Shown here piece by piece: positions 45,155-55,275 of a stretch of DNA of 64,000 nt (the stretch's first letter is position 1; each line of letters starts with the position of its first letter). Both the position numbers and the translations under genes were made by a program. The notes beneath the pieces were generated by a model, which searched no databases, was not told the origin of the DNA, and was given only the letters and a program-made list of their open reading frames with translations. The stretch covers positions 54,188,001 to 54,252,000 of the forward strand of contig OX597817.1 in assembly GCA_951406725.2 (NCBI GenBank). The letters are read 5' to 3'. Origin of the DNA: Octopus vulgaris. Taxonomy: Eukaryota.

Positions 45155-45345
45155 AAAATTTATGAAAAAAACAAAAACAAAAGACGAAGACGGGTGTGTA
45201 AACAACAAACTGATGTATTAGTTTATAGCTCGGGAAGTGAGAAAGTCTTTTACGTTTCGAGCATACGCTCTTCGACAGAAAGAAACACAGAAATAAACAG
45301 GGAGAGAAAATAGAAAAGGTTTAGTGGTTAGCGATCTATCATGCG
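45155..45345 (-). mobile_element. Family P repeat with hammerhead-like fold at 45246-45283
   Basis: Minus: UCUUU-CUGUCGA-A-GAGC-GUAU-GCUC-GAAAC-GUA-AAAGA. Confidence 0.78.
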
Positions 45346-45584
45346 ATATATATATATATATATATATATATATATTAGGTCCGGTTGATTCGGGGTTAAC
45401 CACGTTTACAACTAGTACTGTTTCATTCAGAGAAATCTTCAGAAGCTCATATATAAATATATATATATATATATATATATATATATATATATATATATAT
45501 ATATATATATATATATATATATATATATATATATATATATATATATATATATATATATATATATATATACATATATGTGACCGC

Positions 45585-45785
45585 GTGTGTATCGTTGGCG
45601 ATTTTTTCCTCCGTCTTCTTTTCCTTGGATCTTTCCTTTTCCTATGTTTCTGACGAAGAGCTCTGCTCAAAACGTTAAATTCTCCTTCTTTCTTTCCTTT
45701 CCTGAGCGTCCAGTAACGCTATACTTGTTCCATGTCCTCGCGTTGTTGTGTTTTATCTTTGTGTTTTCATGTTTGGATTAACTAC
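45585..45785 (+). mobile_element. Family P-related repeat with hammerhead-like fold at 45646-45680 (G12 mutated)
   Basis: GUUU-CUGACGA-A-GAGC-UCU-GCUC-AAAAC-GUU-AAAU. Confidence 0.65.
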
Positions 45786-45834
45786 ATATATATATATATA
45801 TATACATATATATATATATATATATATATACATA

Positions 45835-45995
45835 GGGAGAGTTGACGAAGACAGGTGGAGTACAAAACAAACAGATGTATTAGTATAACGCTCAGGAATA
45901 GAAAAAATCTTTTACGTTTCCAGCCTACGCTCTTCTACAGAAAGGGACACAGAAATAAACTAGGAGAGAAAAACATGTGTGCAGTGGCTAACGAT
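45835..45995 (-). mobile_element. Family P repeat with hammerhead-like fold at 45908-45945
   Basis: Minus: CUUU-CUGUAGA-A-GAGC-GUAG-GCUG-GAAAC-GUA-AAAG. Confidence 0.72.
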
Positions 45996-47184
45996 ATATA
46001 TGTATGTATGTATGTGTGTATGTATGTATGTATGTATGTATGTATGTATGTATGTATGTATGTATGTATGTATGTATGTATGTATGTATGTATGTATGCA
46101 TATCAGGAGAGAGAGACAGGGGGAGAGAGAGAAAGAGAGAAAGAAAGTGAAAGAGAAAGAGAAAGATAGAGACCGGTTCTTTTGTGTAATGAAAGCAGGC
46201 TATGATAATATTTGAGGAAGGATAACTTTAAAAAAAATGGAGGAATTCCCTTCCCACTTCTGCAGAAACATTGAAACCGTTGTGAAATATCGTCTGTTAA
46301 GATTAACAGAGAATAGTTTAGTGTTTTTAATGAAAATGGCGAGGTGAGAGAGAAAATGGTTTGAGAAGAAAGTGGTCACAGGATGAAGCTGTTACATACA
46401 AGGGATTGGAGGAATATAGTCACGACTTGGTGTTGTTGTTTGATACCGTTTCTGATCGATGGATCGATTGTGTTCGATTATAGATAGAACAAGGCGTGGC
46501 TTCAGACACATTCTTATCATCATTGCAATTGTAGTAGTAGTAGTAGTAGTAGTAGTAGTAGTAGTAGTAGTAGTTGTTGTTGTTGTTGTTGTATTTGTGT
46601 TGGTGCCGGTGAGCGTTGGGGCTGGAGAGTTGTGTGTGTGTGTGTGTATGAAAGAACTTTAGGTAAGGCTGGTGTTGGTGGTGGTGGCGGGGGAAGTGGG
46701 TGTTTTTTAACGGATGCGGTGGTGGAAGTGACAGAGGGAGGGGAGATGTTCATTTGCTGACAGGGGTTGTTTTGGCAGATGTGGCGGTGTTTGTGGTGGT
46801 AGCAGCAGCAGCAGCTGTAGTAGTAGTGGTGGTGGCGGTGGTTTTGCAATGGCTCTGGTTTTCTTTTAGGTAGTAATGGTTTTGGCGGTGGTAGTGGTGG
46901 TGATTGTAACCAATTGATGGTATTAATTGGCAGTGGTGGTGGTGTTGTAGAGGAAGTAGTAATAGATGGTGTTTTTTATTGTTGATATAACGGTGCTGGT
47001 TGTAGTCCTTATTATTATTATTATTATTATTATTATTATTATTATTATTATTATTATTATTATTATTGTTATTATTATTGTTATTATTATTGTTATTATT
47101 ATTATTATTATTATTATTATTATTATTATTATTATTATTATTATTATTATTATTATTATTATCATTATTATTATTATCATTATT

Positions 47185-48101
47185 ATGTTCTTTCCTTCTT
47201 TCTTCAAATTTTCTTCCGTTTCTCGCCAAGTGTTTTCCATACACCTAGGACAGAGAAGCTCATTGTATGCATTCCTAGATTACACACGCAAATTCACAGA
47301 TAAAATATGTATTTAAAAATTAATAAATAAATAAATTCATGAATGGATGTTGTTTTCACAGCGATAGTGCTCTTCTCAGTACATGAGCCGTTGCAGTTAA
47401 TACGATTTTTTGCACTTCCTGTAGGGATGGTAAGCCTGGAATCATTTTCAAATAGGTTTCAGTACTTTTTTTTATCATTCCTAGGGACAAACAATCACTG
47501 GTACTGTAATCGCCTTGAGATGCCACATTTTTTCGATTTCTATTTGCAAGTCTTTATATTTACTAATCTTGTCAAATTCTTTCGCCGCTATATTGTGATC
47601 GCAAGGAATACTCATGTCAATTAATAAACACATCTTTTTTGTCTGATCTTTTATAATAATATCCTGTTTATTAGCTTTTATAGTCTTGTCGGTCTGTACG
47701 GGGAAGTCCCATAGAATCGATACATTTTCTCCCTCAGTCACAGCTTCAGGATGGTGTTTATACTATTTGTCAGCGGTTTTGATTTTATAATACCGACATA
47801 TTGTCCAATGTAAATACTGGCCGACTCTGTCATGTCTTGCTTTATATTCTGCAGGTGCTAAGACTCTACACCCTGAGATTAGGTGGTCTATTGTTTCAAT
47901 CTCATCGTTACAGAATCGGCATTTTGGGTCAGCTCCATTTTTTATCACATTGGCTTGGTAGTTCCGGGTTAATAAGCTTTGGTCTTGAGCAGCTAATATG
48001 AAACCTTCACTCGCTGCTTTTAGCCTTGAGCTTCGTAACCATTGGTGCGTGCGCTTCTGGTAGACATCAGCTTATTTGCTACGGGCCACATACTTGCCAT
48101 T
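47185..48101 (-). mobile_element. Dong/R4 retrotransposon 3' ~900 bp: CCHC knuckle, RHD motif, REL endonuclease, 3' UTR
   Basis: EGFILAAQDQ...CRFCNDEIETIDHLISGC...RHD...WDFPVQTDKTIKANKQDII...IDMSIP...KISKYKDL; (TTA)n on both sides. Confidence 0.92.
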
Positions 48102-48123
48102 TATTATTATTATTATTATTATT

Positions 48124-52916: not shown

Positions 52917-53130
52917 AAGGTGGCGAGCTGGCAGAAACGTTAGCACGCCGGGCGAAATGCTTAGCGGTATTCCGTCTGCCGCTACGTCCTGAGTTCAAAT
53001 TCCGCCGAGGTCGACTTTGCCTTTCATCCTTTCGAGTCGATGAACTGGGGTCGATATAATCGACTTAATCCGTTTGTCTGTCCTTGTTTGTCCTCTCTGC
53101 GTTTAGACCCTTGTGGGTAGTAAAGAAATA
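52917..53130 (+). mobile_element. SINE family B
   Basis: Head and core as at 30098, with an internal deletion. Confidence 0.87.
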
Positions 53131-53863
53131 GGTAAAAACCAAGAGATAAGCAATAAAACATTGTCAAAGAAGTTGCTACACGAAGACAAGAGATTAAAAC
53201 ATTTTTAAGGTGGGGGGGGGGGGGAAGCTTCGAGGATAATAAATATGAGATGTGTGAGAACGTTGTTACTGTTGACAATTATATGATGTGCTGATGTAGT
53301 AAGATGGTACAAGCAAGATATAGAAATACGGCACGATAGGTTAATAGAGAATGTAGCGTCAGTTTGCAAGGAGAAGAAATATGGTAACATAACCAGGCAG
53401 AAGCTGTTAGTGGAATTGACTTTTGTAATGAGATCCTATCAAGTTTTTCTCTGCAAACTTACAATCCACACAAAAATAATATATATATATATAATAAATT
53501 GATAAATATAAAATATAAAATAAAAATTATAATAATAGTGTGGCCATCATGTCACGTATTTCCACAGTCGAATTTAATTTCTCTTTGGAGGGACTCGATG
53601 GAAACGAAGCTAATGTCATGATATTACGAGTTGGTCACTCTCCATCTTCCCACGCCTTTATTTCTCTTGTTACACACACACACACACACACAGTACGCAA
53701 ACAACGAGAGAAACAAATGGAAAACAGGACAAGTAACATGAAGAATGACCCTTCATCAGTTGTCGGCTATTTATCTAATACTTATTTCGAGTATTGGGTA
53801 TATATATATATATAAATATATATATATGTGTGTGTGTGTGTGTGTGTGTGCGTGTGTGTGTGT

Positions 53864-54250
53864 GGAGGCGCAATGGCCCAGTGGTTAGGGCAGGGGACTC
53901 GCGGTCGTAGGATCGCGGTTTCGATTCCTAGACCGGACGTTGTGAGTGTTTATTGAACGAAAACTACTAAAGCTCCATGAGGCTCCGGCAGGGATGGTGG
54001 TGATCCCTGCTGTACTCTTTCACCACAACTTTCTCTCACTCTTACTTCCTGTTTCTGTTGTACCTGTATTTCAAAGGGCCGGCCTTGTCACTCTCTGTGT
54101 CACGCTGAATATCCCCGAGAACTACGTTAAGGGTACTCGTGTCTGTGGAATGCTCAGCCACTTACACGTTAATTTCACGAGCAGGCTGTTCCGTTGATCG
54201 GATCAACCGGAACCCTCGTCCTCGTAACCGACGGAGTGCTTCCATCCATC
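53864..54250 (+). mobile_element. tRNA-derived SINE family C
   Basis: A-box TGGCCCAGTGG, B-box GTTTCGATTC, ~300-bp non-tRNA body, (TCCA)n tail; single copy in this window. Confidence 0.75.
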
Positions 54251-54433
54251 CATATATATATATATATATATATATATATATATATATATATATATATATA
54301 TATATATATATATATATAATTTCAACAATTGAGGGTAAAATTAATTAATTATTAATCAATTTCACCAAGTATTCAGTATGTAAAGGGACCATTATAGGCG
54401 AATTCAAAATATTACATTATATATAAGGGCTTA

Positions 54434-54749
54434 GTAAAATAAATTACTTTGCCACATACTGAACTCGTTAGAAATAAGCTAAAGAAATTTCTTCAGCTAT
54501 TTCTAATACTTAAAGAAGATTCTCTCAGAAGTTTGCCTAAACTAACTCACAAAAGTATGGGGAAAAACATTAAAAAATCAATAACCTTTGCACTTGATTT
54601 TTTAATGTTTTTTTCCCCATACTTTTGTGAGTTAGTTTAGGCAAACACTATCTGAGAGAGATCTTCTTTAAGTATTAGAAATAGCTGAAGAAATTTCTTT
54701 AGCTGCTATTTCTAACGAGTTCAGTATGTGGCAAAGTAATTTATTTTAC
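54434..54749. repeat. Long foldback with ~150-bp arms and a 12-nt spacer
   Basis: 54434-54581 is the near reverse complement of 54594-54749. Confidence 0.92.
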
Positions 54750-55074
54750 GCCCTATATATATATATATATATATATATATATATATATATATATATATAT
54801 ATTTATATATATATTTGTGTGTGTGTATTATGTGTGTGTTTGTGTGTGTGTACGTTAGGTGTGAAAAATCACATCTTATTAAATTGCAAATAAAAGATGT
54901 AATTGAGCCAAATATATTAAGATTTTAGACACCTCTTTGACTTTGGGGCCACCCTCTGTATATAAATGCGCGCGCATGTGTATTATGTGATTGTTTTTGT
55001 GTATGTGTGTTTACATGTGTCTTTGTCGGTGTATATTTGTGCACCTGTATGACTGTATATATCTATAGTTCCAA

Positions 55075-55275
55075 TTTACAGAAAGACAGAAGACAAAGAC
55101 AAGCGTAGGAACAATAAGCAAGTGTATTAGTTTGACGATCCGGAAAAATGGAAAAGTCTTTTACGTTTCGAGCCTATGCTCTTCAACAGAAAGAATTAAG
55201 AGGAACAAAATGGAGAGAGAATGAAAAACAAAACGGAGAAAGAAAACTGTGTAGAGTTCAGCGGTCCAACATGGT
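55075..55275 (-). mobile_element. Family P repeat with hammerhead-like fold at 55157-55194
   Basis: Minus: UCUUU-CUGUUGA-A-GAGC-AUAG-GCUC-GAAAC-GUA-AAAGA. Confidence 0.78.

Follow-up and report, generated by a model that had tools for sequence, protein, structure and literature searches.

A Penelope-like retrotransposon of Octopus vulgaris carries a minimal hammerhead motif with a fixed uridine at core position 6

Background

In Penelope-like elements (PLEs), the promoter lies in the terminal repeat (pLTR), and the two hammerhead motifs of a tandem transcript are proposed to cut as a dimer, which would allow a circle to form (PMC6765202). In the PLE of the green anole, reverse transcription starts internally, downstream of the motif, and the hammerhead cut only with the protein of the element (PMC11167929). 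Natural departures from the hammerhead core are described at two positions that matter here: an A6C variant has an observed rate constant (kobs) below 0.1/min (PMC3088659) and A6C cleaves at 0.29-0.31/min in Mn2+ (PMC7151607), while U4C is weak in vitro and sufficient in a viroid (PMC3088659). Here we analyze a stretch of 64,000 nucleotides (nt) from Octopus vulgaris (assembly GCA_951406725.2, contig OX597817.1, positions 54,188,001 to 54,252,000, forward strand; hereafter the window), in which copies of a dispersed repeat, family P, hold a hammerhead motif with the core CUGUNGA, that is, with U in place of A6. Within family P this U6 is the state of thousands of genomic copies and of intact mobile units.

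Anatomy of the motif and its copies in the window

The minus-strand copies of the family P motif read CUUU-CUGUNGA-A-GAGC-loop-GCUC-GAAAC-GUA-AAAG. This resolves into stem I (CUUU/AAAG), the CUGUNGA core, an extra A between A9 and G10.1, stem II with its loop (GAGC-GUAG-GCUC), GAAAC and the GUH site; there is no monomeric stem III or loop III, and the palindrome ACGU stands in their place. All the features that define the minimal hammerhead of PLEs are present, namely stems I and II, an extra nucleotide after A9, GAAA, palindromic 15.2-16.2 and UH. Relative to the consensus hammerhead (numbered, and with G disallowed at position 17, after PMC7151607), G12, A13, A14, A15.1-U16.1 and H17 all agree, and the departure from the consensus core C3 U4 G5 A6 N7 G8 A9 lies at position 6. 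The hammerhead identity proposed for these repeats by a first-pass annotation of the window is thereby supported, while the extra A after A9 and the missing monomeric stem III had been overlooked. The Rfam search found nothing of hammerhead type in 45180-46000 at E<=10, and hammerhead families are absent among the 150 matches listed of 594 for the whole window.

Copy 1 (45152..45345, minus strand; its ends, like those of all copies given here, are approximate) is a 5'-truncated pLTR fragment of a PLE, recognized by homology to the pLTRs of full-length units. Its minimal type I hammerhead occupies 45247..45282, with 45282-45279 pairing with 45250-45247 in stem I, C3 at 45278, U6 at 45275, C as N7 and a predicted cut after N17 at 45251. 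Copy 2 (45834..45994, minus strand; hammerhead 45944-45909, C3 45940, U6 45937) belongs to the N7=A subfamily, and its C11.1 has become G, so that the G10.1-C11.1 pair is lost. Copy 3 (55066..55276, minus strand; hammerhead 55193-55158, C3 55189, U6 55186, N7=U) comes from an older subfamily. A remnant (25369..25573, minus strand; C3 25463, U6 25460) retains CUGUCGA but lacks a 23-nt segment between two AAGA words, a deletion that took stem II through N17. A fifth copy, degraded and with a decayed stem II, is found on the plus strand (2281..2470; C3 2348, U6 2351). The U6 core claimed earlier for four of these copies was borne out when all four were re-read, and the fifth agrees. The claim that position 7 varies around a constant U6 is likewise supported: N7 is C, A and U in the three complete copies and takes all four bases genome-wide. 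The reported drift of loop II did not hold up at family level, since GUAG is the majority in 6/6 subfamily clusters and the differences in the window are single-copy changes.

Genome-wide census of position 6

The genome (2.8 Gb) was searched by exact pattern matching with positions 6 and 7 left free and with the reversed pattern as control. The 17,759 matches, against 0 for the control, show that the family P motif is not a product of chance. Position 6 is U in 17,066 of them (96.1%) and A in 198 (1.1%), leaving 495 with C or G by subtraction. A search with the downstream flank only, covering the window and 200 kb of neighbors, returned 11/11 copies with U6. The genome consensus at this position, named beforehand as the place where the U6 claim could fail, is U6 and not A6.

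The sampled A6 copies of P look like point changes after insertion. Their nearest neighbors carry U6 in 9/13 cases, the other 4 being old copies close to each other, and another 19 A6-U7 loci, from 20 retrieved, are spread over several subfamilies as judged from their flanks. A separate A6 subfamily within P was rejected on the scatter of these 19; an A6 state may be possible in the oldest P copies. We also looked for U6 families with another stem II. The 40 matches are mostly decayed P or likely point mutants of A6 families, so this candidate was dropped and no covariation is claimed from it.

The host element

Judged from its coding content and layout, family P represents the pLTR of a Penelope-like element, a retrotransposon that encodes a reverse transcriptase (RT), a zinc-finger linker and a GIY-YIG endonuclease. 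Long P copies reach upstream into an open reading frame (ORF) that encodes the RT, a CX4CxxC linker and the GIY-YIG domain, the single ORF with C-terminal GIY-YIG of canonical endonuclease-bearing (EN+) PLEs. In the 1079 amino acids (aa) of the reference unit L097, Pfam detects RVT_1 (E=1.4e-7) and GIY-YIG (E=0.0065, under Pfam's curated cut-off), and the motifs DKG, YIDD and YIGQT and the linker CSRPRCRTC can be read in ORFs of this type. The protein has 861 homologues, and in a protein search 114 matches scored at >=92% identity, long open frames being present in many of them. A CX2-5CxxC linker before the endonuclease and a (TA)n target bias, both found here, are features of Neptune/Nematis-type PLEs (PMC8557442), and the linker marks P as Neptune or Nematis type, putatively Neptune, the RT tree having been built without a named reference.

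The U6 motif stands downstream of the ORF in 20/20 long-ORF loci fetched and on both sides of it in 13/20. Tandem units that form pLTRs, 5'-truncated copies and inverted pairs were all seen, as in the canonical EN+ PLE layout. Eight measured units are 4470-4573 nt long, seven units are 96.7-98.6% identical to L097, and an unbroken frame of 1064-1080 aa is present in 7/17 loci that carry the start motif. Insertions mostly end in (TA)n, 82-115 nt past U16.1 and thus past the core, while their 5' ends vary and often lie 50-85 nt upstream of the core. Because near-identical tandem units, some with intact ORFs, have U6 in both pLTRs, this evidence makes U6 the condition of the mobile element rather than a product of decay. 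As a separate observation, 8/17 young P loci (L100-L105, L109, L110) have lost one A from an A7 run near ORF codon 39, giving a stop at 49 aa; the longer form of the run occurs in contigs of 4/4 RNA runs, and slippage or assembly error may be involved.

Sister lineage Q and the ancestry of A6

The window also holds a pLTR fragment of a sister PLE lineage, family Q (45576..45790, plus strand, ends approximate), with a CUGACGA core at 45650. This element had been described, at 45646, as canonical. That description does not stand, for position 45669, its G12, is an A, and intact elements of this lineage carry U4C. The A6 pattern with its stem II has 5,118 genome matches, and Q makes up most of the matches listed. 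One Q copy was traced to its coding parent, and the intact tandem members have a unit of ~6.2 kb, a protein 70% identical to that of P and the core CCGACGA, that is, U4C. The CCGACGA pattern gives 9,249 genome matches, with A6 in 95 of the first 100 listed. N17 is C or U in intact Q members and A, U or C across Q subfamilies. Among intact tandem loci, L218-L224, L231, L183 and L192 have fixed U4C, N17=C and a stem I mismatch, the last being carried by the youngest Q members. One further locus (L204:5400-6150) has a Q copy fused directly to the N-terminal portion of the ORF and is likely an internally deleted, non-autonomous form.

In a protein tree, P and Q are sister clades with support of 100/100, each clade itself at 100/99 (L054 was omitted as too short, and three A6-labeled P rows had been picked for A6). 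Related RTs in 80 metagenome loci are accompanied by 23 sense-strand motifs, of which 20 are canonical, 1 is U3-A8, 1 is U4C, 1 is G3 and 0 are U6. Since there is no U6 among these 23 and A6 occurs in all 56 motifs of Cervera Fig. S3, A6 is most likely ancestral and U6 was most likely derived once, on the P stem. The U4C case is a minimal hammerhead after a related RT on a metagenome contig (L264:2928), a single locus suggesting that U4C may recur in other animals.

Conservation of the core within family P

A sample of P copies was drawn by flanks (157 copies); 9 that lacked a complete core were discarded, those picked for A6 or for a changed stem were put to one side, and 115 remained after duplicates were removed. 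Their tree was built from the flanks only, with the 28 core columns masked. A Fisher test of core against flanks would be circular on a tree built from flanks and was not used. Inner-branch changes in the 28 columns number 8 at N7, 4 at N17, 2 at the loop CpG and 0 elsewhere, so that 12/14 fall at N7 and N17; G8 and G12 have none. On end branches, the 26 columns besides N7 and N17 show 64 changes. The bases G8, G12, A13, A14, A15.1 and U16.1 are kept in 110-114 of the 115 copies, and G5, C3, A9 and the ACGU palindrome are likewise kept while positions 7 and 17 vary. At position 17, G is found in 3/115 copies. The 4,724 genome matches with non-A at this position include 96 U and 4 G among the first 100 listed.

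Subfamily majorities differ at 12-41 of ~110 flank columns and, within the core, only at N7 and N17. Between P and Q, 20/24 non-loop motif positions match, compared with 98/241 (41%) of ORF fourfold sites (binomial P ~2e-5). For the stems of the PLE minimal hammerhead, 91/99 cells are paired, with one compensatory pair in stem I (P vs Q). Whether the stems are better conserved than flanking sequence had also been proposed as a possible refutation, and the core proved more conserved than neutral sites. On these comparisons, selection very probably acts on the P motif. That the core instead reflects no selection at all, a chance A6U in one master copy having spread too recently for core decay, is a very improbable and largely refuted reading, for which one can cite the short inner branches of the P protein tree (0.01-0.02) and a low-complexity alignment that inflates flank differences, and which is contradicted by the flank divergence between subfamilies and by the P/Q match just described.

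Conservation extends past the core in all P and Q pLTRs, where CCYGAGCG and ACUAAUAC/UAAUAC are conserved 15-40 nt past the cut (45205-45235, minus strand, in the window). ACUAAUAC is repeated in the 3' untranslated region of the youngest P units. The GAGC of CCYGAGCG can pair with the 3' strand of stem II, a predicted off-state in some copies (probability 0-0.93). The string ACUAAY resembles STAR/Quaking or branch-point sites.

Does the U6 motif cut?

We favor, with roughly even confidence, a reading in which the P motif remains a ribozyme, slowed and probably assisted by a protein, and would cleave only in dimeric form. Slow residual activity is plausible because the A6 and U4 positions have known low-activity natural variants. 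In the transcript of a tandem unit, two motifs separated by ~4.5 kb would join through ACGU and an exchange of stem I strands, with cleavage at GUH^AAAG. From the 3' ends of insertions, the RT would start ~100 nt downstream of the cut, so that rapid cutting at the downstream motif would detach this start from the ORF unless the unit circularizes. A slower U-turn may thus be tolerated or favored, but not changes that abolish the acid-base residues. The sister lineage Q would reach a similar state by U4C, making A6U and U4C two routes to slow cutting. An extension of this scheme, which we consider rather unlikely, is that P and Q independently detuned the ribozyme, which would be off in free RNA and cut only when the RT protein of the element supplies the role of A6; if true, a defect in the hammerhead core would be a protein-gated switch that times RNA cutting to retrotransposition.

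Several observations weigh against slow cleavage. Insertions that start at the predicted cut show no clear peak in P (9/45 listed, against 6 in the neighboring A run) and no peak in the A6 comparator (3/16); these tallies were made by hand among the first 100 of 361 and of 180 rows, respectively, and (TA)n microhomology confounds them. When another hammerhead was scanned by mutation, activity was low for every single and double change in its CUGA region, the C3/G8 swap excepted (PMC9901934), and PLE hammerheads are slow even with A6 (PMC4209133). In the anole PLE, no RNA reads ended at the cut and hammerhead-dead mutants inserted normally in vitro (PMC11167929). Stem II of the P and Q families shows zero compensatory changes. 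Loop II and the ACUAAUACA motif ~30 nt downstream are as invariant as the core in the 115-copy tree, so that part of the conservation is not catalytic and would fit protein binding too. The N17 pattern amounts to about four independent events, and the core pattern by which most copies were gathered may have passed over subfamilies altered elsewhere in the core. Finally, U6 favors a predicted monomer rod in most subfamilies (U4-G5-U6 with A15.1-C15.2-G16.2, pair probability 0.17-0.99), which would block dimer formation.

Thermodynamic folding gave z from -0.2 to +2.3 over 6 folds, nothing above shuffles. RNA contigs from 8 runs span the P motif, and contigs cannot reveal RNA ends. One listing of contig differences had no alternative base at position 6, but as the familiar variation at position 7 was missing from it too, it is given no weight. 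Two other ideas were set aside: U6 as an off-state stabilizer alone, because A6 introduced in silico gives other off-pairing (mean change -0.3 kcal/mol, lower in 20/37), and the pyrimidine tract plus core as an intron acceptor, because no splice joint in the RNA contigs supports it.

The main rival, which we hold to be a serious contender of lower probability than slow activity, is that the fold is dead: the motif would no longer cut and would be kept as a structure, or as a sequence, to which the protein of the element binds so as to position reverse transcription ~100 nt downstream, A6U and U4C being independent catalytic losses. It accounts for the fact that P and Q each fixed a rate-lowering change yet expanded to ~17,000 and ~9,000 exact matches, for the stem I mismatch in the youngest Q, and for the missing excess of insertions at the cut and the fixed loop II and downstream motifs noted above. 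It also accords with the dispensability of cleavage in the anole assay and with Naiads, which spread without canonical hammerheads (PMC8557442). What it explains less well is that the changes between subfamilies fall where hammerhead chemistry is free, at N7 and at an N17 never fixed as G, and that G8 and G12 are unchanged on inner branches; moreover, the protein-binding region of the anole PLE was mapped to a downstream stem-loop and not shown to be the core (PMC11167929). We lean toward slow activity over the dead fold, on indirect evidence.

Less probable still, and in our judgment improbable, is a DNA-level or regulatory role of the 27-nt sequence, as an internal pLTR promoter element or an endonuclease site, with a hammerhead look that is merely inherited. 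The pLTR location of PLE promoters (PMC6765202), the many short copies that start 50-85 nt upstream of the core and an invariance of sequence rather than of pairing would suit it, but a free N7 within a fixed heptamer, an N17 that is not G and the one compensatory P/Q pair in stem I suit an RNA fold better.

Other features of the window

Another family contributes a canonical minimal hammerhead (CUGAUGA) at 43151-43207 (plus strand), its stem II being longer. At 57495-59930 (plus strand), an open frame of 812 aa with RVT_1 (E=4.5e-30) likely belongs to an element of the long interspersed nuclear element (LINE) type. A long, near-perfect inverted repeat at 24694-24921 resembles a miniature inverted-repeat transposable element (MITE), and a spurious miRNA match falls there in the Rfam search of the window.

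Comparison with known hammerheads

Small PLE hammerhead variants with reduced stem III, dimer cleavage and PLE association were reportedly described by Lunse, Weinberg and Breaker in 2017. Our literature search found no natural U6 hammerhead; the large alignment of that study lies outside the comparison and may hold U6 examples. We accordingly describe the U6 hammerhead as a fixed core variant of the known PLE ribozyme, with a novelty that is provisional for this reason. The variant bears on the question of whether PLE hammerheads must cut at all, given that their cleavage is slow in vitro and could be dispensed with in the one reconstituted system. In this one genome, a single stem II scaffold occurs with a natural series of cores, canonical A6 in older Q, U4C in intact Q and A6U in intact P, and both variants have complete young ORFs. 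Should U6 prove able to cut, the accepted core would have to be broadened, and descriptor searches requiring CUGANGA have passed over a family of >17,000 copies in one genome. If U6 is dead, a successful PLE has kept the hammerhead shape without catalysis, which would point to a second role for the fold.

The closest likeness is to the minimal type I hammerheads of metazoan PLEs (PMC4209133). Both sets occur in both pLTRs and have a short stem I, one extra nucleotide between 9 and 10.1, G10.1-C11.1, palindromic 15.2-16.2, no loop III, dispersed truncated copies and a predicted dimer. They differ in the core, for all 56 motifs of Fig. S3 in that paper carry A6 and the core variant described there is U3-A8, whereas P has U6 fixed in intact elements; and the P motif is uniform where those motifs are highly variable. 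With the A6C hammerhead of phage Bcep176, whose activity is low but real and better in Mn2+ (PMC3088659, PMC7151607), P shares a natural pyrimidine at position 6 in an otherwise intact core. The phage variant is a C at a single locus, assayed as one RNA, and that of P is a U in thousands of retrotransposon copies, known from sequence alone. The U4C viroid variant cited in PMC3088659 is the same change as that fixed in Q, in a viroid context as opposed to intact PLE tandem units.

The green anole Poseidon element PAc (PMC11167929) resembles P in its pLTR hammerhead upstream of an internal RT start, its AT-rich targets and its tandem layout. PAc belongs to another clade, has no core change reported, and starts its ORF inside the motif, while the ATG of P lies ~730 nt past the predicted cut.

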